Source: Bacteroidales bacterium (lineage in GTDB: Bacteria; Bacteroidota; Bacteroidia; Bacteroidales; FEN-979). Taken from it: a stretch of 64,000 nt of DNA. The stretch lies in assembly GCA_023231065.1 (NCBI GenBank), contig JALNWE010000004.1:5167-69166 (forward strand), read 5' to 3'. Shown here piece after piece: positions 14,348 to 40,202 of the stretch (positions are counted from its first letter, which is position 1; the number at the start of each line of letters is the position of its first letter). A program made the translations under genes and the position numbers. The notes below the pieces were generated by a model that did not search any database, had not been told where the DNA came from, and saw nothing but the letters and a program-made list of their open reading frames with translations.

Positions 14348-17300
14348 TTACAACCTTACTTCAATAAAATTATGTGGTTTGGTCAGCATGGACATAAACT
14401 GATCCTTTGAAATAACCGCCCCACCCTGGCGATAACTGTTCCCTTCATCCCCGAAAGTCACAGGAATGCCATTGATGGTAATGGATTTTGGGCCAAAACT
14501 GTCTTCTTTGACCGTATATAAAAAGGTTACCGGATGACCCATGAAATCCAGGGAGGCCGACAGGCCATCCAGGGATCGCGGAATTACCGGATCTATAATC
14601 ACCTTACCGGATTCAGTCCGTAAACCCAGCAGCCTTGAAACGACAAGTCCAATGTAAATACCTGGTCCGCTGGAATAAACCCTCCATCCTCCTTTCAGGG
14701 TGATTTTTCCTGTTTTTATCTCATCGTAAAGTTCATCGGCTTCATACCGGTTTTTAAAAGTAACATCCGAGCTACTGTAATAACAATTGGATTGGCGGAT
14801 ATCACCACAGGGGACGATTTCCCTGTAGCCAACCGGATTTGCCTGGCGAAGGGCTTTCAGAAAAGCCTCTGCCCTACCTGTGCGGGCCAGCGCTTCTGCA
14901 TACCGGATATGCTCATGAACATACATGAGGCCAATCTCACGGCCAAAGAAAGTACTGCTCTCCGCTCTCTGAAAGAGGGCCTGGATGCCTCCCTTATAGG
15001 GAAGGGGCCGGTCCATCAGCCGGGCCCCGTCAGGGCCTTTCAGGTGCATTTCAATGAGATCCTGGTGGCGTAGCGCTTGTTCCTTTGTGAATATCCCACT
15101 GATCACGCCCCGGTCCATCGGCAGGATGCTGTACCGGATGCTAGTCATAGTATCACCCGGATGAAGCAATAAACTGATGCTGCGATCTTCTTCAACCAAA
15201 CCATATCCTGCAACCACGCCATCCTTGATCAGATATCGGTTGAAATCCGATTTGATTTGTTTTGATATTTCTTTTAATTCATTGGATTTTGATTCATCAC
15301 CTGTCAGCTCATAGACGGCCTGGTACTGGTTAAAGGCCTGGTAATTCATTTCAACCGTCCAGCTTGAGATCATCCGTTGCGCCAATTCCTTGTTAACCGG
15401 TTGCAGGGAATCATTCCAGTCACCGCCCCCAAAGGGGACCAGCGCCGTGCCGGGAATAAAGGAGCCAACGATCATCCTGATCAGCCGGTCAATATGCTCG
15501 CTGAGGGGTGTATGTTCCGCATAAGCAATCCCTTTTTCATGATAATAAGGTAAAATCCCGTCGAGGATATTCAGGTCACCGGTCACTTTGATATAATTAC
15601 TCAGGGCAATGATGCACCAGTAATAAACATCCCCGTGTGAACTGTAGGCCCGGATATTGGAATAACTGTCGAACATCCACCATTGCGGCCAGCCGCCATC
15701 CTGATTTTGATTTGAGAAAATGATACGCAGCGCCTGCCGGGCCGCATCATATTTTTCCAAACACAGCAACAGGTCAAACGGTCCCTGGGCGATATCCCTT
15801 GTCCCCCAGGCTGCGCCACTGAATTGCTCCAGGCCATAAGGCGTCAGAAAATGGGTAAGGGCATTCATGCCATACCATGGCAGGATCTCCTGAATGGCAG
15901 CGATATCTTCCTGATCCCCCTTTAATGATAGGTTTAAACACAAGTCCTGCCACGAAGATTGGGCGTCATGGCAATCAGAAAACCACTGGTCGCCGGTCCT
16001 GTTGATACACTTATCCGGGCTGTATTCCCTGCATACCTCACCCACGAAACTCATGAAGAAACCCGTTGTTTCGCGGACATCGATCACAAATAAGGAATTT
16101 CCATGGTTTTTTTCATCATCGAACAGTACTTCGGCCCTGCTATTTTGATTATCAAATCCATCAGCAAAGATTTTAAATTGTGCGTTTGGAAATTTTCCGG
16201 CAATCATACTTTCCGGCCCTGGCCTGGCGATGAACTCACCAGCGCTGTTTCCCTGTATAATCTTCCAGCCGTTCAGTGGATCAAAGTGATGGGTGATCAA
16301 AAGACTGACCTTTGGCCCACGAAAAACTTTGAAGTCCATATTGACCCTTGGCGCTGTTTTAGAGGTCCAGGCGCGGACCTGAAAACAATGGTCCCCGGAT
16401 TTATAAATCCACCGGCAGTGATTCAGCCCGATCTCAAAAGCTGACGGAACGCCCAACAAAAATCTCCGGCCTTCGGTCTCAACAAAAATTCGTTGCCCGG
16501 TTTCGGGTTCGAGATTAAAAGAGCTGTTACAAATGGATAGAAAAACATTGAAATTGGTGTTCCCCTGTGAAAGATGCGAATTGAAAACCCCGAAGGCATA
16601 GGCCGTTGTCGCGACGGTGTTTTCATCGGGCACATATCCTGATTTTGCCTGCATGATATGGCCATGGGGACGGTCAGCCAAAACCTCTTTTGCGCGCAGC
16701 ATCACATGGTTATTATCCTGGCAAAAAAAGGATAGCAATTGCCCGTTTTCCGATTCATCGTGACGCCGTTTGCTACCGAAAAATTGTTCAAGCTCCTGTT
16801 CATTCAGGTCGTCAACCGGTAAAAAACAAGAGGTATTGAAGAAATTCCTCACCGGAGCCTGGAATTTTTGCGTATCCCGGAAGGCGCTCTTGTCAGATTG
16901 AGGTGACAATCCATCCCTGAATTCTGACATCAAGCCGGATAACCGTTTCAGATCATTTCCTGATGTTGCCTGGGAGTGATCCTGTAAATAGGTCGCTGTA
17001 AAAATACTTTGGCGATGTTCCCCGTGCAACAATGTAAATGGTGTTTCCTGCAAAGCAAGCACAGAAGATTCCCCTGCATATTCGCCTCCCAGCTTACTGT
17101 CAAGCAAACTTTCCGGGATCCCGGTTTCCCTGTATGTTTTACCATAAAACTGCATACCATCGACACTTCCGGCTATGGCGTTATTCCTGCATGCTAACAT
17201 TATCCAGGGATTACCAACCGGTCCTTTCATGTTCTGACGGCAGCATATAACAGAGCCATAATTGGGATCTTCCAGGATTCGCCGTTCAATATATTGACTT

Positions 17301-17710
17301 ACATAATATTCATTGATCAACCCATCCGTAATCGGTTTCAGACCGACATCCTGGACATAGATCAAGTCAAGGTCAACCTGGTCATCTGTCGGATTGGAAA
17401 CATCAACTGACCATTGCCAGCTCAGGCTTTTTTTTGAAAGCTGTAACGCACAGGTATAATGAAGACCAGCCCAACATCCTTTCGCCACGAAAATATTGCC
17501 GGTCACCATGAATTGGCTGTTACTTTCCGGTCCCAAAAGGGCCTTATGCCCCAAGGGTTCTGTTCTTCTTCGTAAATAAAGGTTCGCTCCTGATTTTGAA
17601 AAGGGTGTTGCTGCTTTAAGGCTTATCCTGATGGGACCGGCCTCAATGCTCTTTACGGAACCATTTTCCAGAAAATCAATGGAGAGGCCAAGGGGATTTT
17701 TAATTTTCAT
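14348..17710 (-). CDS. GH94 glycoside phosphorylase, 1,2-beta-oligoglucan phosphorylase (SOGP)-like
   Basis: 1120 aa, no signal peptide; THFLTPYGLEQFSGAAWGTRDIAQGP, WPQWWMFD, HGDVYYW, GGGDWNDSLQP (catalytic Asp region), YVHEHIRY, GWRVYSSGPG. Size and motifs fit recalled SOGPs (Lin1839, Cphy_0694) and the GH144 context. Confidence 0.8.
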   Translation of the reverse strand: MKIKNPLGLSIDFLENGSVKSIEAGPIRISLKAATPFSKSGANLYLRRRTEPLGHKALLGPESNSQFMVTGNIFVAKGCWAGLHYTCALQLSKKSLSWQWSVDVSNPTDDQVDLDLIYVQDVGLKPITDGLINEYYVSQYIERRILEDPNYGSVICCRQNMKGPVGNPWIMLACRNNAIAGSVDGMQFYGKTYRETGIPESLLDSKLGGEYAGESSVLALQETPFTLLHGEHRQSIFTATYLQDHSQATSGNDLKRLSGLMSEFRDGLSPQSDKSAFRDTQKFQAPVRNFFNTSCFLPVDDLNEQELEQFFGSKRRHDESENGQLLSFFCQDNNHVMLRAKEVLADRPHGHIMQAKSGYVPDENTVATTAYAFGVFNSHLSQGNTNFNVFLSICNSSFNLEPETGQRIFVETEGRRFLLGVPSAFEIGLNHCRWIYKSGDHCFQVRAWTSKTAPRVNMDFKVFRGPKVSLLITHHFDPLNGWKIIQGNSAGEFIARPGPESMIAGKFPNAQFKIFADGFDNQNSRAEVLFDDEKNHGNSLFVIDVRETTGFFMSFVGEVCREYSPDKCINRTGDQWFSDCHDAQSSWQDLCLNLSLKGDQEDIAAIQEILPWYGMNALTHFLTPYGLEQFSGAAWGTRDIAQGPFDLLLCLEKYDAARQALRIIFSNQNQDGGWPQWWMFDSYSNIRAYSSHGDVYYWCIIALSNYIKVTGDLNILDGILPYYHEKGIAYAEHTPLSEHIDRLIRMIVGSFIPGTALVPFGGGDWNDSLQPVNKELAQRMISSWTVEMNYQAFNQYQAVYELTGDESKSNELKEISKQIKSDFNRYLIKDGVVAGYGLVEEDRSISLLLHPGDTMTSIRYSILPMDRGVISGIFTKEQALRHQDLIEMHLKGPDGARLMDRPLPYKGGIQALFQRAESSTFFGREIGLMYVHEHIRYAEALARTGRAEAFLKALRQANPVGYREIVPCGDIRQSNCYYSSSDVTFKNRYEADELYDEIKTGKITLKGGWRVYSSGPGIYIGLVVSRLLGLRTESGKVIIDPVIPRSLDGLSASLDFMGHPVTFLYTVKEDSFGPKSITINGIPVTFGDEGNSYRQGGAVISKDQFMSMLTKPHNFIEVRL

Positions 17711-20141
17711 TTCCTGGTTTATATTTCAGGATCATTTTTTCCCTGTGTGCATGACTGTACAGGATTGCAACACGGTTGACGGAACGGGCCATTTTAACCG
17801 CAACACCGTTTATTGTTGCAGATCCGATCCTGTTCACATTTGCGCCTTCGAAGACGATCTCACCGGCGAGGTCGCGATCCCCATACAGGATGATTTCAAC
17901 CTGGCCCGCTTTACATTCCATGCCAAGAATATCCGAAGTAGTGTGCAGTATCTTCAATCCGGGACATACTTCCATACACAGGGGCGTTAATATGGCATAC
18001 AAGGCAGGCCATAACAGATCACCCTTTAAAAAGGGGATGGTGATGGTTTCGCCACTTTCGGGATGGGTGTACGACACGTTGCCTTTTTGCTCTTCGTTAT
18101 AATAATTTCCCACGAAAAGCAAACCCTCCTGGTTAACCGTGAAGCGTTCCCTTACGACGATAAAATCATTGTTGGACGATGCCTGCCTGAGTTTTGCCCC
18201 TGATCGCTTCAATATCGTCTCATAGACCGGTTTGTCAGCTTCGGTGTCGAATCCGATCCATGTCCCCAGATGGATCACGGTTCCGTTTCCAAGGGCTTTT
18301 AAGAATCCACAGGCTGTCCCGTTCAGCGTCCTGGCGATAATTTCTGCGCCGGAAAGGGAACCTTCAGGATAAATGATCAGGGGATTGGAACATTTGATGT
18401 CTTTCAGGTCAAATACATCGACCAAAGGCGAATCTATAATCTCTCTTCCGGAAGGCGCAATTGGCAAACTATCGCGAAGAATTGTGCAAGGTTTTTGAGA
18501 CATCTCCCGATCAGGCAGGTATGGAAAAACGACCAATTGACCGCCTGCCCTTGTATAATCCACGAGGGTTTGCTGATCCACCGCGTTCATTTCGTCTGTG
18601 CTGAATGCCCATACTTGTTTGTAGCGCAGCAGGGTTTCGGCAGATGCTTTGGTCAGATCAATCATATTATAATCTATATTCATGACCTGAAGGGCTTTCA
18701 GCAATCCATCGAAATATGCCGGCCGGCGAATGGCAGAGGGGGTGAACAGGAGTTCACATTCAGCGCCAACCGGTCTTTCAAGTTCTGTAGCGTAATAAGG
18801 AGGATAAAACAGCACACCTACTTCTGCTTTACGTTTCGCGTTGACGATAAGGCTTTCGGAGGTTCTGATGATGTTGCTCATCCGTTCTACCAAAGGGTAT
18901 AAACTGGTGTGCCTACCTTCGGCGGTGAGTGGGCTGAACCAGTAAAAAGTTTCTCCCGAATAGCCTTTATGTTTTGGGTTACGGCCCTGAGAGAACATAT
19001 AATAATTCCAGCCCGACAGGCCATTGGCGATGCTTGCTTTATAGAAAAGTTCCATTTCCCGTGGATTGGTCACGACATTATATTCACGGGAGCCGCTCTG
19101 GAACTCGGCTGCAAACATTGGTTTATTTCCCTGCATGGCATGGGTTACATCATTGATGATACGGTCGTCGTGCAAATTGCGGTATGAAAAGAATTCGGGG
19201 ATATGGTCCACACCAAAAATGATCCCGCTTTTATCCCCGAAAAGCTCATCGTACATCGTGATATTGACCGGGAATTCATACCCATTCCCATAGATCCATC
19301 CGGGGAGGTTGTGATATAAAGGAACGCCGACTCCCCTATCCCTGGCCATTTCGACCAGCATTTTCAGGTAATCCGCATAATACCTTCTCCAGAAACAGTG
19401 CCATTCGTAATCACGGCCCCGATCGCCTTTTGACGCGTAAGGAAGCTTCCCGTCCGGTGGAAGGCCTATCTGCCCAAAATCATGATATTCAGTTCCCCAT
19501 AATGTGTTTACCTGATCAACCGAAGAAAATTTATCGGAAAGGTATGAGAGGAAGCGATCCTTTACGGCATTCCCGAAGTCTGCCTGTTTGGCTAACCATG
19601 AAAAAACGCCTATTTCGTTACAGATCTGCATCATGATGATGGCCCCCCCTTTTGAGATCTCCCTTTCATGGATGAAAGGCATGATCTGATCGTACCAGAG
19701 CGTCACTTTTTCCAGGTAGTTCGTGTTGAACAGGCTCACTCCGTCGCTTTGGACGATTTCCCCTTTACGGTTACGCATCTTGACCTCATCCCGATATCGG
19801 GCCATGAACCAATCGGGCAATCCGGCCCCGCGGTACTCTGCCAGGATAAATGGTCCCGGTTTAACGATGCAATTCAAGCCATGGGCCTGACATCGCCGGA
19901 GCCATCCTTTCACGTCGCATTCCGGGCAAGAGGATCCGTCCAGGTCAAAGACAGACTCCTGTTGCTCGTGCCATGCCCATGGGATATAAGTACTGACGGT
20001 GGTCAACCCGGCATCTCTTGCAGCAGTCAGGTGCTTGTCCCACAGATCGCGTTTGATCCTGAAATAGTGGATCTCTCCTGAATTGAGAAATACCTTTTTT
20101 TCGTTCAGATAAAAACTGTCTTCTTTAATGCTAAATGTCAT
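17700..20141 (-). CDS. Cytoplasmic GH35-like (beta-galactosidase fold) enzyme with GH42-type trimerisation domain
   Basis: SGEIHYFR, TYIPWAWHE, KPGPFILAEYRGAGLPDW, QICNEIG (acid/base), AAEFQSG (nucleophile), YYMFSQG; no signal peptide. The stop overlaps the GH94 start by 11 bp. Confidence 0.8.
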   Translation of the reverse strand: MTFSIKEDSFYLNEKKVFLNSGEIHYFRIKRDLWDKHLTAARDAGLTTVSTYIPWAWHEQQESVFDLDGSSCPECDVKGWLRRCQAHGLNCIVKPGPFILAEYRGAGLPDWFMARYRDEVKMRNRKGEIVQSDGVSLFNTNYLEKVTLWYDQIMPFIHEREISKGGAIIMMQICNEIGVFSWLAKQADFGNAVKDRFLSYLSDKFSSVDQVNTLWGTEYHDFGQIGLPPDGKLPYASKGDRGRDYEWHCFWRRYYADYLKMLVEMARDRGVGVPLYHNLPGWIYGNGYEFPVNITMYDELFGDKSGIIFGVDHIPEFFSYRNLHDDRIINDVTHAMQGNKPMFAAEFQSGSREYNVVTNPREMELFYKASIANGLSGWNYYMFSQGRNPKHKGYSGETFYWFSPLTAEGRHTSLYPLVERMSNIIRTSESLIVNAKRKAEVGVLFYPPYYATELERPVGAECELLFTPSAIRRPAYFDGLLKALQVMNIDYNMIDLTKASAETLLRYKQVWAFSTDEMNAVDQQTLVDYTRAGGQLVVFPYLPDREMSQKPCTILRDSLPIAPSGREIIDSPLVDVFDLKDIKCSNPLIIYPEGSLSGAEIIARTLNGTACGFLKALGNGTVIHLGTWIGFDTEADKPVYETILKRSGAKLRQASSNNDFIVVRERFTVNQEGLLFVGNYYNEEQKGNVSYTHPESGETITIPFLKGDLLWPALYAILTPLCMEVCPGLKILHTTSDILGMECKAGQVEIILYGDRDLAGEIVFEGANVNRIGSATINGVAVKMARSVNRVAILYSHAHREKMILKYKPGNEN

Positions 20142-20159
20142 CCCGCTGGTTTTTCATGG

Positions 20160-22244
20160 CTACAATTGCTGGTCCCCCGACAGGTTGGTTTGATTAGAAC
20201 GTTCTGCATTCCTTTGCTTGAGGAGCTCTTTAATTTCACGGGAACGTTTTTCTGTCAGGGTATAACGGAGAATGAAGAAAATAGAAAAAATGCTTAATAA
20301 GAGTGGCAGGCCGATCTCAACAACGCGCATCATTAAAAGCGTATAAGGAGTCTGTTTGGTAAGTGGGACGATTTCGTTTTCAATGGCGCCCAGCTCTTTA
20401 TCAAGTATGGTCATGGGCGAGCTGGCGTCCATAACAACCAGCCGGTTGTCAACGAATGAGATATCCTGCAGGAGCCCTTGATAATGAGTTTTGCTGTTTT
20501 TGGTTTCTAGGGATTTTGATTTCAGGTGCGACATCAGTTCAAATGTAACTATTTTTGCCTTTTCAAATTTGGCGCGAAGCGTTAAGGGAATTACATTCCG
20601 TATCAAAGAATCGGTCCGGACGGGCCCGGCCTGGATTGTTTTTCCCAGATGCAACTTAGCCTGTTCCAACAGGATCACCGTGGACTTAGTGGATGTCAGC
20701 GCGTTGAGTAGCATATTTTTGCGTTGGCCTTGATAGGCGGGAAGGTTCTGGTTGGTCTCTTCTTGTTTTTTTTGAATTTCCTTTTCCAGGTAAGCCTGAT
20801 ATTCTTTTGCTTCTTCGAGCGCTTCGGAACATTGTGCCCGGGTGTTCCCGATCCATTCCCTATTGGCGTTGGTCAGTCCTTTGTAACCTTCCCAATACTG
20901 GACCTTGCTGCGTATTGCCCGGATGCTTCCCTGCAAACCATCCACTTTTGTAACCTGGTTTTCGTCGAACATGGTCAACACGATGAGGATGCCGGCAACA
21001 AAACTAGCTAATGCGGTCCCCATCTTAATGAACCACCAGAAAATCGAATAAAAGCTACCTTCAGAGCGATAACCGGTCCTTAATTCTTCTTCATCACAGA
21101 TGTCGCCAACCATAGATGAGCCCAGCGTAAAGAAAAACAACATACCGGTTGAGAGCAGGACCGTTGGAATAATGATCAGGTATGGATAGTTTGGGTTGTA
21201 GCAGACAATCTTGGAGAGTTGTGCCAGGCACATAAGCAAAATAGCGACAGTAAGGGTATTCCGTTTACCGATTTTAGGGCTGATCCAGTTCAGGGGGAAA
21301 ACAGCAAGCAAACCGGTAATGGCCCAAACGGTCCCATTGATGCCCAACAAGGTGGCGCCTGCCACTTTATCACCGCCAAAAACATAAAAAATCGGGATGT
21401 ACGATCCTAAAAGCTGGACAAAGTTAAAACCCATGGCCAGGGTGAAGATAGTGAGCGTCAGCATAATAAAGTTCTTGTTCCTGATCGTGGCGTTCATATC
21501 TTTCCAGAAGGGGGTCTTTTCATGCTTAACAGCTTTGACGAACCCAGGCTCGCGTAATGTAAAAGTCCACCATAAAGTAAGCGGGACCAGGATAGCGGCA
21601 ATCAGTATGGATACATATCGCATCCCATCGGCTTCATTTCCTCCGGGGCCTTTGAATACTTCCATGCTGGCTAACGCGAAAAGCCAGGGTGTGCTCATAG
21701 CGAAGAGATTGCCAATAAAACTCTTGGCGCTGAAGAGACGGGTACGTTCATGATAATCCGTGGTCATCTCCATACCCAGGGCGCCATGAGGAATTTCAAA
21801 AATATTGACGGAAGTGAAAAAAAGCAAAAGGGCAAAAAGAATATAACAAAGCTGAAATGCATGGAATCCCGATTCTGTCGGGAACCAGGTACGCACCATA
21901 TCCCCTTTGGGGATCCACCACATGACAACGAAAAACACGGCTACGAGCAGTCCTCCAATCAGGAGGAAAGGGCGACGGCGTCCCCACCGGGTCCGGGTAT
22001 TATCTGAGAGATGGCCGATAATCGGATCAGAGAGCGCATCCCATAAACGCGGGATGATCAAAATGAACCCGAGCCAGAAAGCGCTGAGCCCCAGACTTAT
22101 ATTTCCCATCAACCCAACGAGTATCCCGGCTATGTTGAAAAGGGCAATGGGAATGATGCCCCCGGCGCCATAAGCTGCCAATTGTGAAAAGGGAATGTGA
22201 TCTTCAGGTTTGGTAGTGTGTTCCTGTTTTTTTTCTTCTTTCAT
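20160..22244 (-). CDS. GPH-family (MelB-like) MFS sugar symporter with a ~200-aa soluble insertion
   Basis: PRLWDALSDPIIGHLSDNTRTRWGRRRPF, EMTTDYHERT, MVGDICDEEELRTGYRSEG, WFIKMG; hydrophilic helical segment at about aa 428-630 before the last TM. Confidence 0.88.
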   Translation of the reverse strand: MKEEKKQEHTTKPEDHIPFSQLAAYGAGGIIPIALFNIAGILVGLMGNISLGLSAFWLGFILIIPRLWDALSDPIIGHLSDNTRTRWGRRRPFLLIGGLLVAVFFVVMWWIPKGDMVRTWFPTESGFHAFQLCYILFALLLFFTSVNIFEIPHGALGMEMTTDYHERTRLFSAKSFIGNLFAMSTPWLFALASMEVFKGPGGNEADGMRYVSILIAAILVPLTLWWTFTLREPGFVKAVKHEKTPFWKDMNATIRNKNFIMLTLTIFTLAMGFNFVQLLGSYIPIFYVFGGDKVAGATLLGINGTVWAITGLLAVFPLNWISPKIGKRNTLTVAILLMCLAQLSKIVCYNPNYPYLIIIPTVLLSTGMLFFFTLGSSMVGDICDEEELRTGYRSEGSFYSIFWWFIKMGTALASFVAGILIVLTMFDENQVTKVDGLQGSIRAIRSKVQYWEGYKGLTNANREWIGNTRAQCSEALEEAKEYQAYLEKEIQKKQEETNQNLPAYQGQRKNMLLNALTSTKSTVILLEQAKLHLGKTIQAGPVRTDSLIRNVIPLTLRAKFEKAKIVTFELMSHLKSKSLETKNSKTHYQGLLQDISFVDNRLVVMDASSPMTILDKELGAIENEIVPLTKQTPYTLLMMRVVEIGLPLLLSIFSIFFILRYTLTEKRSREIKELLKQRNAERSNQTNLSGDQQL

Positions 22245-22299
22245 ATAGTTATCTGTCGTTTTTTTCGTTGATGAGTTGTCGGGCGGCGCTGAAATCCTG

Positions 22300-31121: not shown

Positions 31122-31157
31122 ATTAAAACCCTCTTTATCAAATTCAGTTTTATTTGG

Positions 31158-31205: not shown

Positions 31206-31223
31206 CCGGATAAATAATTGGGA

Positions 31224-32568: not shown

Positions 32569-34062
32569 TTACCAGTTCGGGTTTTGTGTTAAAGATCCCT
32601 GTGAAATATCAATTTCACTTTGTGGTATCGGTAGAAGTTCATGTTTCCCGGCAACAAACCCAAGCGGGCCTAACACCTGTGCCGCCCTGCCAGTCCTGAT
32701 CAAATCCCAGAAACGCCATCCTTCCATGGCCAGTTCATGACGTCTTTCATTAAAAATAATATCGCGTAATTCATCTTTGTTGAGTGTGGTAATATCCGGA
32801 AGGATAGCGTTATTTCCCTGCCGTGCCCTTTGCCTGACCTGGTTGAGATAGAGTAAGGCTTCGCCAGGTTTATCATTTTCATTCAAAGCTTCAGCAGCCA
32901 TCAACAAAACATCGGCGTACCTGATCAACCGGCGATGATGTCCATACTGGGTGATGACGTTATCGCCGGGGACCCAGACTTTCCGGGTATAACATTCAAT
33001 TTCAATAATATTGCCATGTTCATCGTAGGTAATGTCAGGGGTAGGTCCGTCGCCAAGGATTTTTATACCATCGATGGTGTCGCCCAGGTTGATAACCGTA
33101 CCTTTATATCTTGGGTCACCGGTTTCGAAAGAATTCCTCAGGTCGATGGTCGGACGGTTAAATCCCCAGCCGCGATTGGGGGTCCCCCGCACTCCCTGGG
33201 TGTTGGCATATTGGTTGCCCCCGCCTGTTGTGATTTCCGACTGGAGAGCCCCTACTTCAAAAACAGATTCAACGCCGTTGTTCCCATTAACGCCATTGGC
33301 ATCAATGAAGAGAGGCTCCAACCCGTATTGATTTGAAGTAATCACATCCATGGCATACTTTTCGGCATCGGGGAAATCATTTCTGAAAAGATAAACCCTT
33401 GCCAGTAATGCCTGGGCGGCCCCTTTGGTTGCCCTGCCGATCTCGGTGTTTTTGTATTCTGATTTAAGGGGTAAATTGTCGATGGCGAAATTCAGGTCAC
33501 TGATGATAAGGGTATATACATCTTCGGCAGAAGACCGTTGGAGTTTTAAAGGAGGATCGGTGGTCGTGACCAGCGGGACCCCGCCCCAGGCCCTTACAAA
33601 ATCGAAATAGATCAATCCACGGATGAATTTAGCTTCGGCGATATACCGGGTTTTCAATTCTTCATCCATCGCGATGGCAGGGATTTTTTCAATCACCACG
33701 TTTGCCCTTTTCACGCCTACATACAATGCATTCCAGTAACGGTCGATGCCATCCTGGGTAGTCGTATGGGTAAACACATCATAGGGGCCCACGGTGGAAG
33801 CCGCGTCGTCAGGGTTACTTCCTTTTCGGGCATCATCCGACATGATATCAAAAATGGGAAAGCCTCCCGCGCTGTAATACCATTCCCTGACGGCTTCATA
33901 CGTGGCATTTGTCGCTAACAAAGCATCCGACGGAGAGGTGGGGAATAATTGCTGGGTCAGCGTGCCCTGAAGGTCTTTCTCCAGAAATTTTTTGCATCCG
34001 CTGAAAAATATGCTGGTTGTGACGACCAGGATCGAAAAATATAATTTGGCTTGTGTTCTCAT
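32569..34062 (-). CDS. susD: SusD/RagB-family glycan-binding lipoprotein
   Basis: Lipobox FSGC; YIAEAKFIRGLIYFDFVRAWGGVPL, GRATKGAAQALLARVYL, IRYADVLLMAAEA, ERRHELAMEGWRFWDLIR, LPIPQSEI. Confidence 0.95.
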   Translation of the reverse strand: MRTQAKLYFSILVVTTSIFFSGCKKFLEKDLQGTLTQQLFPTSPSDALLATNATYEAVREWYYSAGGFPIFDIMSDDARKGSNPDDAASTVGPYDVFTHTTTQDGIDRYWNALYVGVKRANVVIEKIPAIAMDEELKTRYIAEAKFIRGLIYFDFVRAWGGVPLVTTTDPPLKLQRSSAEDVYTLIISDLNFAIDNLPLKSEYKNTEIGRATKGAAQALLARVYLFRNDFPDAEKYAMDVITSNQYGLEPLFIDANGVNGNNGVESVFEVGALQSEITTGGGNQYANTQGVRGTPNRGWGFNRPTIDLRNSFETGDPRYKGTVINLGDTIDGIKILGDGPTPDITYDEHGNIIEIECYTRKVWVPGDNVITQYGHHRRLIRYADVLLMAAEALNENDKPGEALLYLNQVRQRARQGNNAILPDITTLNKDELRDIIFNERRHELAMEGWRFWDLIRTGRAAQVLGPLGFVAGKHELLPIPQSEIDISQGSLTQNPNW

Positions 34063-34066
34063 ATCC

Positions 34067-37000
34067 TTAAAAATTTAAATTGATGCCAATTGAATAAACA
34101 GCCGTAATAGGGTATGCGCCATTGTCAATACCCGATGATAAAGGATCACTACTGCTAATTTCCGGAGTATATCCTGTATATTTTGTCAAGGTGTAAAGAT
34201 TATCGGCTTTTACATAAATCCTGAGTTTTTGCATATAAATTTTAGCGCTCCACGAAGAAGGAAGCGTATAACCCAGGGTGACATTCCGTACCCTCAGGAA
34301 AGATCCATCCTGGATGAAATGATCGGAAGGCGTATAATTATAGCCCCCAAAGGAAGCCCGTGGTTCGGTGTCACTGGTCCCAGGCCCAGTCCAACGATCA
34401 AGTACATGACTTTCAAAATTATATGGATCCGGTCTGACAGCTTCTTTTCCATTGAAAATTTTATTTCCTGTCTGACCCTGTATGTTAACTGAAAAGTCAA
34501 TGCCAATAATTTCAAATCCGAAATTAAAACCAAAAATGAAGGTTGGGATCGGGCTCCCGATATAAGTCCTGTCCAAGCCATCAATTTTTCCATCTCCGTT
34601 AACATCAACAAACCGCAGATCGCCTACCACAGCCTGACTATTATGGGGGTAAGCATCCAGTTCGGCCTGGGTCTGAAAGATACCATCAGTCTGATATCCG
34701 TAAAATGCCCCGATAGGTAAGCCCACCTTACTCTGGGTGACCGGGAGCCCATTCCCCAGATACCCACCTATCAGAACAGAATCCACGCCACTGTTCCCGC
34801 CGATGCTCAGTACTTCATTATGGATGGTGGTTCCCAGCACCCCTACATTATATTTAAGTTTCCCAACCTGGTCGCGCCAGGAGAGATTGAATTCGATTCC
34901 CCTGTTCACGACCGAAGCGGCATTGAACATCACTTTAGCGCCGGACCCGTTTCCGAGATATCCGGGTGTGGATAACAGGACAAGGATATCGTCGGTTTTT
35001 TTATTATAATAATCAAATTCCGCGGTAAGCCGGCTGTCAAATAAACCAAATTCAAGCCCGATGTCAGTTTGTGTAGTTACTTCCCACTTCAGGTTGGGAT
35101 TTCCGTTTATCCCATAAGATGCGCCTGAATTGGGATCATTGTTTATTCCAAATATTGCAGGGAGGTCAGATTGAACCCGTGCATAACGTTCCCAGTAATC
35201 AATTTTATCATTTCCGAGCTTACCCCAGCTTGCCCTCACCTTTAATTTATTCAGCCATTTGATGTCCTGCATGAATTTTTCCTCTGAAACATTCCATCCA
35301 AGGGCAAACGACGGGAAACTCGCATATTGGTTATTCGTGGCAAATTTGGATGAACCGTCGCTTCTGAAGGTAGCAGTCACGATATATTTTTTATTGAAGA
35401 CATAATTAACGCGGACCAGAAATGAGATCATGGAATAATATTGTTGCAGGTTCACCGATTCTTCAATCTTGCTGATCGTATTGACGTCATTGGAAGGATC
35501 ATAGATATAGGAAGGCAGGATATACCAGAAACTCTCCCCGTCGCGGATGAGATTGTCGCCGGCTATGTCAAGCCCGTTGGACGTTGCATTTTGCATGGTA
35601 TATCCGGCTATGGCATCGATTGAATGTTTGCCGAATTCTTTTTTATAATTCAGGGTGTTTTCCCACAACCAGGTAAAAGTATAGCTGTTATTCTTGGTCA
35701 GGCGGCTCATGATGTTTTGCTGCTGCGAGATGCTCCCGTTAGGATTATATACTGTATAGGCAGGCGTAAAGCTTTCCGATCTGTTATACCCGGCATCTAC
35801 CCCAAAACTGGTTTTGAAGGTAAAGTCCTTCAGGAAGTTGACATCCATGAAGATGTTTCCGACCCCTCTTACTCCTTTGTTGAAGTTATTTGAATATTCC
35901 AGGTCAGCAAGCGGGTTCCCGACACCGGTAACCGCGGCAAAGCTTCCATCAGCGTAATAAGGTTCCAGCGTTGGTTTTGCCCTGTATGCCTCATAGGTCA
36001 CATTAGGGGCCACCTGCTGGGTATATGGGGCGAGGGTTATATTGTTACCCAGTTTTACATATTGGGATAAGTTATAAATGTTATTTATTTTCAGCGTGAT
36101 ACGTTCATAGTTGGATTTATCAATGATCCCGCCTTGTTTAAAATATCCCCCACTGATGTAATATTGAATATTTTTAGCAGAACCCGAGGCCGATAACTGA
36201 AAATCATAAACCGGGGCCGAATGAAAAATTAAATCCTGCCAGTCAGTGTTTGGAACGGCATCGACATTATTGTAAGTGCCGGATTTAATCTCGTTCGAAA
36301 TAATGGCGAAATCCCGTCCGCTCAACAGATCAATTTTTTTTGCAAGGTTCTGGATCCCCACTTCCCCTGAAAAGTTAAAGACGGTTTTTTCATCCGTGGT
36401 TTTCCCCATTTTTGTGGTCACCATGATAACGCCATTGGCGCCACGCGAACCATAAATAGCAGATGCCGAGGCGTCTTTCAGTACCTCCATGGAGGTGATG
36501 TCGTTGCTGTTAAGGAAAGAGATGTCATCAACAATGACTCCATCGACAACATAGATCGGATTTGAGTTGCCAAAGGTCCCGACGCCCCGGATCCTGACGG
36601 CCGGATTTTCACCAGGTGTTCCGGAAGGGCTGGTAACCTGAACACCGGTCACATTTCCCTGCAGGCTTTGAACCGGGTTAAATGAAGTGATTTTGGTGAT
36701 GTCCTCCGATTTCACACTTCCGACTGATCCGGAAAGGTCGCTTTTCCTCACTGATCCGTAACCGATAACAACCACTTCGTCCAAGGTGGTTTTTTTTAAT
36801 TCCAGGATCGCGTCAACAACCAACTGGTTCCCCAACTCGATTTCTTTCGTGATGTAACCGACATAGGAAAAGACCAGAACGGCTTTCTCTGTCTTCACGG
36901 GTAAGGTGTACTTCCCATCCACGTCGGTGACGGTTCCCGTAGATGTCCCTTTAACCTGTATAGTAGCTCCGGGAAGGGTTTCTTTGGTGTCGGCAGCCGT

Positions 37001-37123
37001 AACTGTCCCTTTGACGGTCCGCACCTGGGCGAAAGACAACCCACTGGACCCTATAACCATTAATAGAAATAAACAGGCCTTCATCAAAACCGGTTTACGC
37101 TTGTGTAAAATTTTATCATACAT
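34067..37123 (-). CDS. susC: SusC/RagA-family TonB-dependent transporter
   Basis: CarboxypepD_reg-like N-domain, LDEVVVIGYG, NPIYVVDG, VLKDASASAIYGSRGANGVIMVTTK, NPNLKWE, DGSFLRVRNVTLGY, C-terminal INLNF. An alternative start is ATG 37084. Confidence 0.96.
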   Translation of the reverse strand: MYDKILHKRKPVLMKACLFLLMVIGSSGLSFAQVRTVKGTVTAADTKETLPGATIQVKGTSTGTVTDVDGKYTLPVKTEKAVLVFSYVGYITKEIELGNQLVVDAILELKKTTLDEVVVIGYGSVRKSDLSGSVGSVKSEDITKITSFNPVQSLQGNVTGVQVTSPSGTPGENPAVRIRGVGTFGNSNPIYVVDGVIVDDISFLNSNDITSMEVLKDASASAIYGSRGANGVIMVTTKMGKTTDEKTVFNFSGEVGIQNLAKKIDLLSGRDFAIISNEIKSGTYNNVDAVPNTDWQDLIFHSAPVYDFQLSASGSAKNIQYYISGGYFKQGGIIDKSNYERITLKINNIYNLSQYVKLGNNITLAPYTQQVAPNVTYEAYRAKPTLEPYYADGSFAAVTGVGNPLADLEYSNNFNKGVRGVGNIFMDVNFLKDFTFKTSFGVDAGYNRSESFTPAYTVYNPNGSISQQQNIMSRLTKNNSYTFTWLWENTLNYKKEFGKHSIDAIAGYTMQNATSNGLDIAGDNLIRDGESFWYILPSYIYDPSNDVNTISKIEESVNLQQYYSMISFLVRVNYVFNKKYIVTATFRSDGSSKFATNNQYASFPSFALGWNVSEEKFMQDIKWLNKLKVRASWGKLGNDKIDYWERYARVQSDLPAIFGINNDPNSGASYGINGNPNLKWEVTTQTDIGLEFGLFDSRLTAEFDYYNKKTDDILVLLSTPGYLGNGSGAKVMFNAASVVNRGIEFNLSWRDQVGKLKYNVGVLGTTIHNEVLSIGGNSGVDSVLIGGYLGNGLPVTQSKVGLPIGAFYGYQTDGIFQTQAELDAYPHNSQAVVGDLRFVDVNGDGKIDGLDRTYIGSPIPTFIFGFNFGFEIIGIDFSVNIQGQTGNKIFNGKEAVRPDPYNFESHVLDRWTGPGTSDTEPRASFGGYNYTPSDHFIQDGSFLRVRNVTLGYTLPSSWSAKIYMQKLRIYVKADNLYTLTKYTGYTPEISSSDPLSSGIDNGAYPITAVYSIGINLNF

Positions 37124-37355: not shown

Positions 37356-40202
37356 TCAGAACTGTAAAAGAAATTCTACAAGATTTGCATCATTAGTTAA
37401 CAGTAACCTTCTTCTCAGCCTGTATCTTCTGGTTTCAACACCGCGATAGCTGATATTGAGAAGGGGGGCAATTTCTTTTGATGCCAGATTGAGTTTCAGG
37501 TAAGCGCATAATTTCAGGTCACTTTGTGTAAGATCAGGATAGGAAGCTTTAAGCCGTTTGAAAAAATTGGCATGGGCCTGGTCGAATAGCTCCTCAAAAA
37601 CTTTCCAATCATTGTCGTCCGTGATATTTTTATTGATCAGGGAAAGGATTTTCTCATTAAGCCCGGAAGGATATTGGTCCTGATAGTGTTTTTTTTGTTT
37701 CTCGAGCTCTTGTTTTATTTCAATCAGCAGTTCATTTTTCCTGATGATGGCCATGGTTGAGTTTGCAACCTGGATATTTTTGTGGGAAATCTCAGCCTGC
37801 AGGTTTTCATTTTGCAATTTTACGATCTCCTGTTCTGCTAATTGCTTCTCCAATAAGAGTTTTGCTTCTGTTTCTGAGCGTATCTTATCCTGCTTTCTGA
37901 TAAATCGTTTCCTGAAAATCGCCTGGCTGATCAAGATTGCAGTCAATAACAGAATAATGTAAAGGATGAAAGCAAACGGGGACGCCATCAGGGCGGGCTT
38001 TATCCTGAATTTCAGCAAGATAGGATCTGTAACTACCCCTGTTGACGATATCGTCCTGACTTTAAAAATATAATTTCCTTTGGGCAAACGGGAATAATTC
38101 ACCGAGGCTTTGTCAGTCCACTGACTCCAGTCATGATCAATTGGTTCAAGTTTATATTGAAACCGGAAAGAAGGAATGCGGTGATTTGTATAGGTATATG
38201 AAATGGAAAGACTGTTCCAGGCATGTTTCACAGAAAAATCCGGATTCCTGAAATCCACACCCTTTGATTCACCTGCACTGTTGATACATTTTACTTCCCT
38301 GAACATTAGTTTTGCCTTTTCATCACCCGATGAATCTGATAGATGTTTGGAAAACAGGGCAAACCCATTATCCAGACAAATGAGATTTTGTTCTTTACTG
38401 ATCCTTACCACATTGGCATATCCATCAACCATGTTGATATGATAAAGAGGAAGGAAAAAACGGATCACCGGTCTGGCTTTTTGCTCTTTGATTTCAAATA
38501 CGGCCAGATCATTATCGCGGATGAAACAGTACCTGTTTTCACCCAGCCAGGTAATATTGGTCGCGTTCCCGAACCCGTCTAACTGCTCATTCAGGACCGT
38601 AAACGGGATGATCCTGTGATTCAGGTCATCATAGGTATATAACGATAGGCCTGTCGTAAAGACGATCCGGTCTTCAATTTTAAATACCCGGATGTTAAAA
38701 TCAGAAGGAAAACCATCTTTTTTCCCATAAGTAACCATACTGGCTACAGTATCCATGTCCTCAGATAACCGGAGCTTATAAAGCCCTTTGACGGCATGTC
38801 CGATCCAGATGTTGTTCAGGTGATCAATCTCCAGAAAACGCGATGGTTCAATGAACCCCTTCACCAATGAATGATAAATCCATTGCCCCCCGATTTTTTT
38901 ATAAACAACAAGGTCAGAATAGGTGCTTTGAAGCAGATATTGCTCTCCATCCTTTGTATATTTTCCCAATGAAAAGCCTCCGCTTACATTGGATATTTTT
39001 TTAAAATCGTTATCGGCAATAATGAACGTTCCCCGCGTGTGGCCACAAAAAAGCGTACCCTCAATATTCTTCAATTCCCAAACCTGTCCCTGTGACTGGT
39101 TGATGAATCCGGAATAAGTGAACCGGTCCGACGGTTTATCCTGACGGTAGGTGAAAACCCCGCGGTTGGTCCCCAGGTACAAGGTTTTCCCTGAAAATGC
39201 CGCGGTATAGACGGCCCCCAGTTCTTCTCCTGTTTCCTGATAAACATCAAGGGGGTTATTGAAAGATATTTTATCGAGGCCTTTATCGAGACCAGTCCAG
39301 ATATCTCCGTTATTATCCGTGCAAAGGGATAAAACCGTATTATTCTGAAGGGCATTTTCATTATGAAGATGGTAACAAATTTTCCCATTGAAATCCAGAA
39401 TGAAAATACCTTTTATGATGGTACCGAAAACCAGTTTATCGCCGGATATGATCCCGTTGTTGATTTGAAATTTCTTCAACAGATCATTAACCGGGACATT
39501 CCATGACTTTATTGTTTTTCCGTCATAATGAAAGACCCCTTTTGAGGAAGTCCCAATGAGATAGTCCCCATTCTTCAAGGGCAAGAAAGCCTTTACCTCT
39601 GTCCCTTTGAGGATGCCATCCGTATCCAATGGGATCAGGGAGTCATTGACCAGTTCAAACAAACTTCCATTTACCGATTGAACGAACAACCTTCCGCCCG
39701 CTTTTAACAGAAAGATAATGGTCGAGGGGACAGGAATAGATTTCACGTTTTTATGATCATAGACAAAAAGCGCTGAAAAGCTTTGAAAATATACTTTTCC
39801 CTTATGCCTGACAATCTTCCAGATTTCGTCGTTGTGGAAGGTGAAATTTTTCAGAAGTGGTTTAAGGGAACGATATTGTAATTCCCCAAACGGATCTTCT
39901 TCCCAGTACCCGAAATCCTCATAAGATCCGGTGTAAATCCTTTTGTCTTCTGATACAGAAACCGACCGGATAATAGTCTGATCAGGGATCCGGAATAATT
40001 TCCAGCGGGCCCCGTCGAACATCAGTAAACCCTTGTTGTTGGCGACATAAATAAAACCCTGGCTATCGGTATCGATCGACCAGTTTTGGTTACCGGCCCC
40101 ATACTCCTGACTGGTATAATGGGTCACAAGGTATGAGGATTGGGCTTGAGGATACCCGATCGCGAAGAAAAAAAGAAGGATGGATACCAAAAAGGATTTC
40201 AT
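37356..40202 (-). CDS. Membrane-spanning one-component PUL regulator (beta-propeller sensor, Y_Y_Y, TM, LuxR HTH)
   Basis: GAGNQNWSI, ENALQNNTVLSL, FQYKLEPID..WSQW, YSRLPKGNYIFKVR, TM helix, DLTQSDLKLCAYLKLNLASKEIAPLLNISYRGVETRRYRLR; no kinase or receiver domain. ATG 40202 chosen because the track start (40235) lies inside a -7 promoter box. Confidence 0.88.
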   Translation of the reverse strand: MKSFLVSILLFFFAIGYPQAQSSYLVTHYTSQEYGAGNQNWSIDTDSQGFIYVANNKGLLMFDGARWKLFRIPDQTIIRSVSVSEDKRIYTGSYEDFGYWEEDPFGELQYRSLKPLLKNFTFHNDEIWKIVRHKGKVYFQSFSALFVYDHKNVKSIPVPSTIIFLLKAGGRLFVQSVNGSLFELVNDSLIPLDTDGILKGTEVKAFLPLKNGDYLIGTSSKGVFHYDGKTIKSWNVPVNDLLKKFQINNGIISGDKLVFGTIIKGIFILDFNGKICYHLHNENALQNNTVLSLCTDNNGDIWTGLDKGLDKISFNNPLDVYQETGEELGAVYTAAFSGKTLYLGTNRGVFTYRQDKPSDRFTYSGFINQSQGQVWELKNIEGTLFCGHTRGTFIIADNDFKKISNVSGGFSLGKYTKDGEQYLLQSTYSDLVVYKKIGGQWIYHSLVKGFIEPSRFLEIDHLNNIWIGHAVKGLYKLRLSEDMDTVASMVTYGKKDGFPSDFNIRVFKIEDRIVFTTGLSLYTYDDLNHRIIPFTVLNEQLDGFGNATNITWLGENRYCFIRDNDLAVFEIKEQKARPVIRFFLPLYHINMVDGYANVVRISKEQNLICLDNGFALFSKHLSDSSGDEKAKLMFREVKCINSAGESKGVDFRNPDFSVKHAWNSLSISYTYTNHRIPSFRFQYKLEPIDHDWSQWTDKASVNYSRLPKGNYIFKVRTISSTGVVTDPILLKFRIKPALMASPFAFILYIILLLTAILISQAIFRKRFIRKQDKIRSETEAKLLLEKQLAEQEIVKLQNENLQAEISHKNIQVANSTMAIIRKNELLIEIKQELEKQKKHYQDQYPSGLNEKILSLINKNITDDNDWKVFEELFDQAHANFFKRLKASYPDLTQSDLKLCAYLKLNLASKEIAPLLNISYRGVETRRYRLRRRLLLTNDANLVEFLLQF

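Follow-up and report, generated by a model that had tools for sequence, protein, structure and literature searches.

A predicted beta-1,2-glucan utilization locus joins Sus-type uptake to a candidate cytoplasmic phosphorolytic branch in an uncultured Bacteroidales bacterium

Beta-1,2-glucans (cyclic glucans and osmoregulated periplasmic glucans) are produced by many Proteobacteria. A gene cluster of an uncultured Bacteroidales bacterium from landfill raises the question of whether such polymers might be taken up by a Sus system and then cleaved by phosphorolysis in the cytoplasm. The cluster lies in a 64,000-nucleotide stretch of DNA, referred to here as the window. The initial annotation had described ten co-directional genes between positions 14348 and 40202. 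All ten are present on the minus strand, with coordinates and identities unchanged, and a co-directional eleventh gene that had been overlooked, encoding an SSF symporter, lies at 12542-14272. Domains of the window genes were assigned with Pfam and NCBIfam profiles, giving the following features:

37356..40202, minus strand: membrane-spanning one-component regulator of the BguR type (Y_Y_Y 36.9 bits; Reg_prop 27.8 bits; GerE 19.5 bits, under the 23.5 cut-off)
34067..37123, minus strand: SusC-type TonB-dependent outer-membrane transporter (TIGR04056 852 bits; Plug; CarbopepD_reg_2; SusC signature)
32569..34062, minus strand: SusD-type lipoprotein lid (SusD_RagB 126.7 bits; SusD-like_3 94.4 bits; lipobox FFSGC)
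31224..32504, minus strand: lipoprotein with Big_5 and Laminin_G_3 domains (Pfam; lipobox LSSC, then KKKSDSD)
29139..31121, minus strand: CpSGL-like lipoprotein of 660 aa with two Big_5 domains and GH144 (PF10091; 5gzh CpSGL E 1e-151; lipobox CTGC)
26865..29108, minus strand: GH3 beta-glucosidase, BT_3567/BglX-like (5xxl (BT_3567) E 6e-238; Lin1840 E 5e-184; NF011678 843.8 bits)
25432..26805, minus strand: N-terminal part of a fusion protein, signal peptide and XcSGL-like GH144 (8xul XCC2207 (XcSGL) E 9e-107)
24526..25395, minus strand: middle of the fusion, CBM11-like beta-sandwich and CBM32 (F5/8 type C; F5_F8_type_C 59.6 bits)
22303..24525, minus strand: C-terminal 741 aa of the fusion, modelled as beta-sandwich, (alpha/alpha)6 barrel and beta-sandwich (AF2 model)
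20160..22244, minus strand: MFS_2/GPH-type inner-membrane symporter, 694 aa (MFS_2 (PF13347) 219.8 bits, above cut-off; TIGR00792 164.7 bits, under its cut-off of 231)
20358..20963, minus strand: all-helical insert of about 200 aa in this symporter, in an outward-facing loop between TM11 and TM12 (hydropathy)
17700..20141, minus strand: predicted cytoplasmic GH35 of the IaSGT type (beta-1,2-glucosyltransferase; 7vkw IaSGT E 3e-145)
14348..17710, minus strand: GH94 of the LpSOGP type, 1120 aa (5h3z LpSOGP E 6e-172, 577 bits, aa 37-1115)
12542..14272, minus strand: SSF-family Na+/solute symporter (PF00474 170 bits; TIGR00813 237 bits)

The genes are tightly packed. Intergenic gaps from susC through GH94 range from -11 to 102 bp, with susC and susD an adjacent pair 4 bp apart, and the regulator shares its strand with the five CAZyme genes at gaps of no more than 232 bp. 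Scans of the locus for promoters and terminators returned matches no different from the shuffled expectation, and a search for RNA sequencing runs with this sequence found none. Lipoboxes are found on SusD, the LamG protein and the 660-aa GH144, and GH3 and the fusion have SPI signals, while GH35 and GH94 carry neither. Going by these export signals, the lipoprotein GH144 and the LamG protein would sit at the cell surface, GH3 and the fusion would be periplasmic, and GH35 and GH94 would stay in the cytoplasm. The LamG lipoprotein, which holds the same position in related loci, is probably a surface glycan-binding protein.

The residues expected for cleavage of beta-1,2-glucan are retained in both GH144 domains, the only two in the genome. 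Aligned with 5gzh, the lipoprotein keeps CpSGL E211 (the general acid, in GYNE), E142 (the candidate base), D135, D139 and the clan Phe, along with D..D..E and GGPLF motifs; it is also close to the GH144 structure from B. uniformis and is likely a surface endo-beta-1,2-glucanase. Aligned with 8xul, the GH144 of the fusion keeps XcSGL E239 (GYNE), F286 and Y367, with PPLFGHQ and LGYAGRG motifs. The structure 8xul itself has Q at the acid position, which we infer to be an E239Q crystallization mutant. The GH3 enzyme matches 5xxl over its full length (795 bits), and its SPI signal peptide (N-terminus ...CHSVEAQ) predicts a periplasmic location. Three structures score above BT_3567 against it: 3u48, a metagenome-derived GH3, 5tf0 and 9urf.

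In the middle part of the 1501-aa fusion, profile searches matched CBM32 chains (E 5e-15) and CtCBM11 (1v0a, E 4e-5). The C-terminal part gave no significant match in Pfam (best E 0.02-0.1) or, for its catalytic portion, in a PDB profile search (E >= 0.015). Its AF2 model has a pLDDT of 95.9 and a pTM of 0.95, and the best Foldseek matches are GH94, GH15 and GH116, at TM ~0.6 and 10-13% identity; hhalign to SOGP gave a probability of 74% (E 3e-5). Membership of GH15, GH94 or GH116 was rejected, the sequence similarity being not significant and the folds alike at clan level alone. Judged by its model, the C-terminus is a member of a large unclassified glycosidase-like (alpha/alpha)6 family of 2316 representative clusters, whose distant members have gene neighbourhoods with no link to glucan use. 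The (alpha/alpha)6 protein normally occurs as a stand-alone secreted protein of ~1060 aa. Its fusion to GH144 is rare: in 49/50 related loci two independent genes encode the halves, and both products carry a signal peptide.

We propose that the MFS_2 symporter is a sophoro-oligosaccharide importer, although GPH transporters usually carry small glycosides. Its insert is atypical of the MFS_2 core and had no match in Pfam. The AF2 model places six long helices at 428-629 (pLDDT 75-91), and the insert is 46-75% identical across all loci.

The protein first called GH35-like does belong to GH35 and is, more exactly, an IaSGT-type transglucosylase, for which no signal peptide was predicted. Its residues E346, E176 and N175 correspond to the IaSGT nucleophile E343, acid/base E176 and N175 and are kept in 121/121 clade members; in IaSGT, N175 takes the place of the GlmA Asp. 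The residues of subsite +1 and the aglycone pocket (E102, R349, L100, V179, F180 and L183) are all conserved. In contrast, the +2 subsite differs from that of IaSGT in 121/121 members of this Bacteroidales clade (Q106A, F391Y and Y392S; A106, Y394 and S395 in the window), the position of Y394 being H in nine of them. The acceptor preference may therefore differ from that of IaSGT, which favours aryl and alkyl glucosides over sophoro-oligosaccharides (Sop_n) and has poor Sop_n kinetics (PMC8861115, PMC13731917). Transglucosylation without hydrolysis is a predicted function of the window enzyme and, given these properties of IaSGT, so is efficient Sop2 disproportionation. A homologue of this GH35 is present in at least 263 species genomes.

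The GH35 stop codon overlaps the GH94 start by 11 bp. GH94 has the four-domain architecture of LpSOGP, with PF21958 (SOGP_N, 174 bits), PF21250 (SOGP_2nd, 163 bits), PF17167 (GH94, 56 bits) and PF21270 (SOGP_4th, 48.7 bits), and lacks a signal peptide. Compared with the residues listed for LpSOGP in PMC5309861, R630, D631, W758, D760, E917, Y922 and H924 are identical (motifs WGTRD, GDWND and GREIGLMYVH). These positions, which cover subsite -1, catalysis and phosphate binding, show no variation among 21 homologues. SOGP catalyses reversible phosphorolysis of Sop_n with n >= 3 and is inactive on Sop2 (PMC5309861). The window GH94 is thus predicted to convert Sop_n (n >= 3) to alpha-glucose-1-phosphate (G1P).

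The same neighbours recur widely. Synteny was compared across 80 related loci, none of them from the same species as the window. In 66/66 loci GH35 is followed by GH94, with a stop/start overlap in about 30, and in 71/71 it is immediately preceded by the insert-bearing MFS gene. An XcSGL-like GH144 accompanies these genes in 54/58 loci and the (alpha/alpha)6 protein in 52/59; L003, L035, L065 and L069 lack the latter and retain the rest. The whole order, regulator-SusC-SusD-LamG-GH144-GH144-1059aa-MFS-GH35-GH94, is found in a complete MAG, and a related complete MAG also has GH43 and further GH144 genes. The three-gene cassette also occurs without SusCD in a Verrucomicrobiota-type context, and the GH35 sequences of those cassettes form one clade (SH-aLRT 100) nested among Bacteroidales sequences. 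GH3 is absent from the available sequence around the cassette in many loci.

How might these parts work together? All steps of the route that we propose are drawn from homology, localization signals and synteny. At the surface, the LamG lipoprotein and SusD would bind glucan and the lipoprotein GH144 would cut it to Sop_n, which would enter through SusC/SusD. In the periplasm, the XcSGL-like GH144 would shorten the fragments further and the BT_3567-like GH3 would free some glucose, for which the SSF symporter is a possible entry route. Periplasmic oligomers would be detected by the BguR-type regulator, which would turn the operon on. The MFS_2 symporter would then move Sop_n (n >= 2) to the cytoplasm, where GH94 SOGP would release G1P stepwise from Sop_n (n >= 3) and halt at sophorose. 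The IaSGT-type GH35 would convert two Sop2 into Sop3 and Glc and return the Sop3 to SOGP; it is probably the key to sophorose use, although the initial annotation had given it no role in the route. In a genome that is 96.7% complete, a search for GH1 and GH3 found no GH1 and only three GH3, all with signal peptides. The net reaction would be Sop_n + (n-1) Pi -> (n-1) G1P + Glc, saving approximately one ATP per glucose unit relative to hydrolysis followed by glucokinase. Phosphoglucomutase and a ROK-family kinase, whose genes are both present in the genome, would complete entry to glycolysis. In E. coli, MalP is a phosphorylase that fails on the shortest oligomers, and the disproportionating transglycosylase MalQ regenerates longer ones and frees glucose. 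By resupplying Sop3 to SOGP, GH35 would make the window pair work like MalQ/MalP. This is an analogy only: GH77/GT35 and GH35/GH94 have unrelated folds and act on alpha-1,4 and beta-1,2 linkages, respectively.

Homology, residue conservation, export signals and synteny agree with the earlier proposal of Sus uptake joined to a cytoplasmic phosphorolytic branch. We consider it probable (roughly 0.7) that the locus is a PUL for bacterial beta-1,2-glucan, linear or cyclic, built from a GH144/GH3 core and a portable MFS-GH35-GH94 cassette. A bolder version goes further: the cassette would be a self-contained, horizontally mobile sophorose engine, in which Sop_n is imported by an unusual GPH transporter bearing a helical domain in the periplasm and a MalQ/MalP-like cycle takes even sophorose to G1P and glucose, and the conserved ~1060-aa secreted partner would represent a new family of glycoside hydrolases with beta-1,2-glucans, or natural decorated or cyclic forms of them, as substrates. 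We put this combination forward tentatively, at somewhat less than even odds.

The locus could instead be an essentially hydrolytic GH144/GH3 PUL, with periplasmic glucose taken up by a transporter such as the SSF symporter and the cassette scavenging minor amounts of escaped oligomers. The operon does include a BT_3567-like GH3 with a signal peptide, and from the periplasm this enzyme could break down the bulk of the substrate before it is imported, making the cytoplasmic branch minor. A Na+/solute symporter gene lies 75 bp downstream of GH94 and may serve uptake of glucose freed by GH3. Species of the same genus retain GH144 loci without GH94, from which it follows that the hydrolytic core can suffice. 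We nevertheless regard this explanation as unlikely: the cassette is strictly kept and tightly linked, with overlapping genes, and its spread from one phylum to another in one piece speaks for a strong selective value. Only two related loci (L028 and L078), moreover, have the SSF gene after GH94, making it a variable accessory gene, and GH3 is missing from the available sequence around many cassettes. That the PUL and the cytoplasmic genes are unrelated neighbours, or an assembly artefact of a MAG, is hardly conceivable. All that speaks for it is that the source is a MAG contig. The gene order is repeated in dozens of independently assembled species, closed chromosomes among them, an arrangement far beyond chance, and the window sequence itself also turns up in landfill, sludge and groundwater assemblies made independently.

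Two further alternatives concern the chemistry. The substrate may be something other than plain beta-1,2-glucan, such as a substituted cyclic glucan, an alpha-1,6-closed cyclic glucan or another beta-glucoside polymer, with the (alpha/alpha)6 protein giving the key specificity. This would fit a large, secreted, unclassified protein with CBM11-like and CBM32 modules kept in most loci, the PULDB GH144 PUL variants with an added sulfatase or GH43_28, and the GH43 and extra GH144 genes of the related complete MAG. We consider it improbable, as the closest characterized relatives of five of the enzymes belong to beta-1,2-glucan metabolism and the four loci without the (alpha/alpha)6 protein keep everything else; it is also more an extension of the beta-1,2-glucan reading than its exclusion. 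A very improbable alternative is that the GH35/GH94 pair is anabolic or modifying, using imported sophorose, Sop_n or G1P to glucosylate a glucoside acceptor and form sophorosides. The acceptor preference of IaSGT, for which its authors suggested sophoroside production (PMC8861115, PMC13731917), the retained hydrophobic aglycone pocket (L100, V179, F180 and L183) and the reversibility of SOGP (PMC5309861) all speak for it. Against it stand the catabolic layout of an operon that unites the pair with SusCD, endo-glucanases and an importer, the lack of any conserved acceptor-pathway gene nearby, and the clade-wide replacement of the +2 subsite, which in IaSGT is unfavourable to Sop_n.

How much of a catabolic beta-1,2-glucan PUL with a phosphorolytic branch is new? 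The known Bacteroides GH144 loci are hydrolytic, as the initial annotation had held: PULDB groups its GH144 loci as 'GH144 GH3' and 'GH144 GH3 GH43_28', and none of the PULDB classes listed combines GH144 with GH35 or GH94. Bacteroides GH144/GH3 PULs, among them the BT_3567 locus of B. thetaiotaomicron, share with the window locus the order SusC-SusD-unknown lipoprotein-GH144-GH3, to which the window adds the MFS-GH35-GH94 cassette, a second, XcSGL-like GH144 and the (alpha/alpha)6 protein. To call the system undescribed was nonetheless an overstatement, in view of earlier sketches for I. album and Chloroflexus and of PULs that combine MFS and GH94 for other glucans.

The partly similar Ignavibacterium cluster that had been suspected is real: I. 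album IALB_1177-1189 has GH144 enzymes, a TonB-dependent transporter, the GH35 IaSGT and a GH94, and Kobayashi et al. (2022) drew a speculative route for it from the outside through the periplasm to the cytoplasm (PMC8861115). There, an ABC transporter and its Sop_n-binding protein carry out the inner-membrane step, whereas the window locus has an MFS transporter and no ABC genes. The Ignavibacteria GH94 is ~800 aa long, cyclic-glucan-synthase-like, 25% identical and about 16 kb from GH35, while the window GH94 is of the LpSOGP type and abuts GH35. The Ignavibacterium GH35 is 36-39% identical to the window type and differs in its +2 subsite, and the I. album report mentions neither a SusD pair nor a beta-glucosidase (PMC8861115). 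An Ignavibacterium-type SGL cluster was ruled out for the window locus, which contains no ABC genes and no GH94 of the cyclic-glucan-synthase-like type. In C. aurantiacus, Chy400_4165-4178 likewise encodes a putative SOGP, a GH35 IaSGT homologue, GH3 and SGLs, and Sop_n disproportionation was proposed by its authors as the real metabolic role of the GH35 (FEBS J 2026, PMC13731917). Unlike the window, Chloroflexus belongs to another phylum, uses ABC uptake and a cytosolic GH3 and has no Sus system. The SOGP operons of Firmicutes (Listeria innocua Lin1838-1840; Lachnoclostridium phytofermentans Cphy_0694) share this kind of phosphorylase and its ATP-saving logic but are Gram-positive with ABC uptake, and sophorose is removed by cytoplasmic GH3 (Lin1840) rather than by GH35 (PMC8861115). 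The overall design of SusCD, periplasmic GH3, MFS and cytoplasmic GH94 is shared by the Prevotella dentalis MLG-PUL and Segatella copri GH94, in which GH94 is a cellobiose phosphorylase acting in the use of mixed-linkage beta-glucan or cellobiose and has no transglucosylase partner (Golisch et al. 2024, PMC11418011).

The predicted route points to a wide range of uncultured Bacteroidales, in landfill, sludge, groundwater and lakes, that would harvest beta-1,2-glucans by energy-saving phosphorolysis. It would offer the IaSGT-type GH35, whose natural function is debated, a concrete physiological role, a long-sought one if true. To our knowledge, only ABC binding proteins have so far been characterized for Sop_n transport, and the symporter is a candidate MFS importer for these oligosaccharides. 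The large (alpha/alpha)6 family is flagged for CAZy-style characterization. Because SOGP and GH35 enzymes are employed to make beta-1,2-glucans and glucosides, this new clade, with its altered +2 subsite, may find a use there.

The regulator has the layout of a one-component system. Its start at 40202 is an ATG located 11 codons inside a TTG-started ORF (37356-40235), and translation from this ATG gives the protein an N-terminal signal peptide. This signal/TM segment is followed by a beta-propeller (Reg_prop), Y_Y_Y, one TM helix at aa 756-774, a helical linker and a divergent GerE/LuxR HTH; HisKA, HATPase and REC domains were not detected in a Pfam profile search. BguR, whose architecture was described by Bartosik et al., is alike, running from signal peptide through beta-propeller, Y_Y_Y, TM and linker to GerE with no phosphorelay domains. 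BguR itself was characterized for laminarin in marine Flavobacteriia, and the GerE match of the window regulator is sub-threshold; one BguR clade is reported to adjoin GH144 PULs (bioRxiv 10.64898/2026.01.10.698779).

We searched the proteins of the locus against solved structures, and the relatives recovered consistently point to β-1,2-glucan enzymology. The best characterised relatives are the following.

Characterised relatives of the enzymes encoded by the locus, from searches against solved structures
GH94: LpSOGP (5h3z), aligned over aa 37-1115, E 6e-172
GH35: IaSGT (7vkw), the β-1,2-glucosyltransferase of Ignavibacterium album, E 3e-145
660-aa GH144 lipoprotein: CpSGL (5gzh), E 1e-151
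N-domain of the 1501-aa fusion: XcSGL (8xul), E 9e-107
GH3: BT_3567 (5xxl), E 6e-238; Lin1840, E 5e-184

The published key residues of these enzymes are retained. GH94 keeps R630, D631, W758, D760, E917, Y922 and H924 of LpSOGP, and GH35 keeps E176, E343, N175, E102, R349, L100, V179, F180 and L183 of IaSGT. Both GH144 domains keep the general-acid Glu of the GYNE motif, the clan Phe and Tyr, and CpSGL E142. The residues of IaSGT subsite +2 are replaced: Q106, F391 and Y392 become A, Y or H, and S, respectively, in 121/121 GH35 members of the Bacteroidales clade; in the window protein these are A106, Y394 and S395.

In the ORF listing, ten co-directional minus-strand genes occupy 14348-40235; the regulator starts at an ATG at 40202, which puts a signal peptide at its N-terminus. 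Every label that the initial annotation had assigned to these ten genes was matched by Pfam and NCBIfam. Missing from its gene list was one further co-directional gene, the eleventh, which Pfam and NCBIfam identify as an SSF Na+/solute symporter; it lies 75 bp 3' of GH94. The features discussed below are:

12542-14272, minus strand: SSF Na+/solute symporter
14348-17710, minus strand: GH94, assigned as a sophoro-oligosaccharide (Sop_n) phosphorylase (SOGP)
17700-20141, minus strand: GH35
20160-22244, minus strand: MFS_2/GPH symporter (MFS)
20358-20963, minus strand: insert of ~200 aa in the MFS protein, between TM11 and TM12
22303-24525, minus strand: 741-aa C-terminal part of the fusion, modelled by AlphaFold as β-sandwich, (α/α)6 and β-sandwich

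From susC to GH94 the intergenic gaps range from -11 to 102 bp, and 232 bp separate the regulator from susC. Promoter and terminator scans of 11500-31400 found as many hits as expected from shuffled sequence and are uninformative on operon structure. Only two related loci (L028 and L078) have a homologue of the SSF symporter after GH94, marking it as a variable accessory; it is possibly a glucose importer.

Targeting signals distribute the products across the envelope. Lipoboxes are present in SusD, the LamG protein and the 660-aa GH144; in the latter two, K-rich and then S/D-rich residues come directly after it. SPI-type signals were identified on GH3 and the fusion; a search of GH35 and GH94 for an export signal found none. 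The regulator comprises an N-terminal signal, a propeller, Y_Y_Y, one TM segment at 756-774 and a weak GerE HTH; the domain search returned no kinase or receiver domains. This is the architecture of BguR regulators, which their authors found adjoining GH144 PULs (bioRxiv 10.64898/2026.01.10.698779).

These features suggest a route for glucan use. Surface GH144 and SusCD would bring Sop_n into the periplasm, where GH144, GH3 and the (α/α)6 protein would process them, and MFS would carry oligomers inward. SOGP would then strip glucose units as glucose-1-phosphate (G1P) until sophorose remains; SOGP cannot cleave sophorose (PMC5309861). A search of the whole genome (96.7% complete) found GH1 absent, and its three GH3 genes all encode signal peptides, leaving no obvious cytoplasmic β-glucosidase. 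The translationally coupled GH35 is a natural candidate for this step: it could convert sophorose to Sop3 and glucose by disproportionation. By analogy with MalQ/MalP, GH35 and SOGP would then form a cycle whose net products per Sop_n are (n-1) G1P and 1 glucose. PGM and a ROK kinase are encoded in the genome, and its GH144 domains both lie inside this locus. The weak point of the GH35 proposal is that IaSGT uses Sop_n acceptors poorly (PMC8861115, PMC13731917); the clade-wide change at subsite +2 may or may not remedy this. Overall, the initial proposal of a sus-type β-1,2-glucan PUL joined to cytoplasmic phosphorolysis is supported in silico by structural relatives, residues, signals and synteny, and the locus offers a testable role for a GH35 transglucosylase.

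Among the species-representative genomes scanned, 263 contain a close GH35 relative. We examined the best 80 of these loci, almost all from uncultured Bacteroidales of lakes, groundwater, permafrost, peat and sludge, and mapped the window proteins onto them.

Conservation in the best 80 loci (denominators, loci with enough sequence)
GH94 downstream of GH35: 66/66, with stop/start overlap in about 30
MFS with insert directly upstream of GH35: 71/71
(α/α)6 protein: 52/59
XcSGL-like GH144: 54/58

A closed, related 5.47-Mb MAG (L001/L083; OY762227, 4.43-4.46 Mb) preserves the full order: Y_Y_Y regulator, SusC, SusD, LamG, GH144 (657 aa), GH144 (465 aa), a 1059-aa protein, MFS (702 aa), GH35 and GH94. 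In this MAG, the region past GH94 continues with two more GH144 genes (492 and 717 aa), GH43 with F5/8C, and GH3, an extension resembling the 'GH144 GH3 GH43_28' class of PULDB. Such synteny across related loci rules out that two unrelated systems are merely adjacent here. Within the window's genus, SOGP occurs in 13/24 species and GH144 in 18/24, and the two share one contig wherever assemblies permit. GH144 loci without GH94 occur in several species of the same genus and in other families of the order. From this patchy distribution, we conclude that the MFS-GH35-GH94 genes are an add-on to an otherwise standard GH144 PUL. In an even sample of the phylum, only 5/401 genomes encode an IaSGT-like GH35, and 3 of the 5 are Ignavibacteria.

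The add-on also occurs under non-Bacteroidota labels. In six loci (L030, L038, L041, L042, L048 and L069), from MAGs named as Verrucomicrobiota, Limnocylindrales or Saccharimonadales, MFS-GH35-GH94 is present and about 70-73% identical to its Bacteroidales counterparts. The GH35 sequences of these loci group together (SH-aLRT 100) within the Bacteroidales part of the tree, consistent with one transfer event of the cassette. For some of the six, the label may instead be a binning error. L038 has a Verrucomicrobiota-like neighbourhood (N_methyl and PEP-CTERM genes), a divergent GH144 and no SusCD.

The XcSGL-like GH144 and the ~1060-aa protein are encoded separately in 49/50 loci, with a signal peptide on both; the window and the related locus L020 have them fused, with a short linker in place of the second signal peptide. 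An assembly or frameshift artefact was ruled out: the junction is in frame with the linker where the second signal peptide would be, an independent groundwater contig spans 25368-25518 with 0 differences, and besides the second fused form in L020 a related genome (G013) has a 1516-aa frame.

In the partner protein, a CBM11-like and a CBM32 domain precede the 741-aa part, whose AlphaFold model has a pLDDT of 95.9. Acidic residues that are invariant in this part, numbered from its first residue, are D320, E368, D370, E439, D451, E565 and E602. Foldseek found only clan-level relatives (GH94, GH15 and GH116; TM ~0.6, 10-13% identity), and sequence-profile searches against Pfam and PDB gave no significant match. 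In hhalign, it matched SOGP at 74% probability, the R-D motif being in register; since fold similarity is at clan level only, assignment to GH15 or GH94 was rejected. The family (hits P0121-P0270) comprises 2316 representative clusters at 50% identity. Its members are ~1050-aa secreted proteins with the layout CBM11-like, CBM32, β-sandwich and (α/α)6, which no described family matches; the locus points to an uncharacterised enzyme family. Distant members lie next to LacI/AraC regulators or lack CAZyme neighbours: this context is not glucan-related and does not help in assigning function.

The MFS insert (aa 428-629) is conserved in all related loci and had no match in a Pfam search. Six long helices are predicted in it, with confidence above that of the model core; overall, the model quality is moderate (pLDDT 71). 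MFS topology places the loop on the periplasmic side.

The initial annotation described known Bacteroides β-1,2-glucan loci as hydrolytic, in agreement with the abundance of GH144 + GH3 PULs in PULDB; none of the PULDB supplement entries listed has GH35 or GH94 next to GH144. Its further suggestion of an undescribed system is overstated. The overall logic has clear precedents. For I. album, the authors sketched a path from extracellular GH144 through a TonB transporter, the periplasm and an ABC transporter to cytoplasmic GH94 and GH35 (PMC8861115). GH35 disproportionation beside a putative SOGP was proposed for Chloroflexus (PMC13731917), and a Prevotella mixed-linkage glucan PUL has GH94 and MFS (PMC11418011). 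In the open-access literature, we found no characterised GH144 + GH94 or SOGP PUL. SusCD with a BguR-type regulator, MFS with insert, LpSOGP-type phosphorylase and a distinct-clade GH35 appears not to have been described before; the invariant synteny, mobility between phyla and associated unclassified family of this locus likewise appear undescribed.

The source MAG spans 3.37 Mb in 169 contigs, and the window covers 5167-69166 of contig C4. Sequence identical to the window occurs in a landfill metagenome, and about half of the 31-letter words sampled from it recur in sludge and groundwater metagenomes; the runs with window sequence are DNA metagenomes only, with none among RNA runs. Several neighbouring features were also recorded. 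A GalM-like galactose/aldose-1-epimerase (44670-45932, plus strand; 420 aa, of which about 85 form an N-terminal extension) is encoded 4.4 kb away from the regulator and on the other strand, and this mutarotase could act on sugars that the locus releases. A 1367-aa ORF (56089-60192, plus strand) with a signal peptide and a GH3 domain is one of the genome's only three GH3 genes. Upstream of the locus region, a 498-aa DUF2961 protein (9200-10696, plus strand) has no NCBIfam name. GC content is 0.34-0.35 in positions 1-4000 of the window, compared with 0.42-0.49 elsewhere in it.
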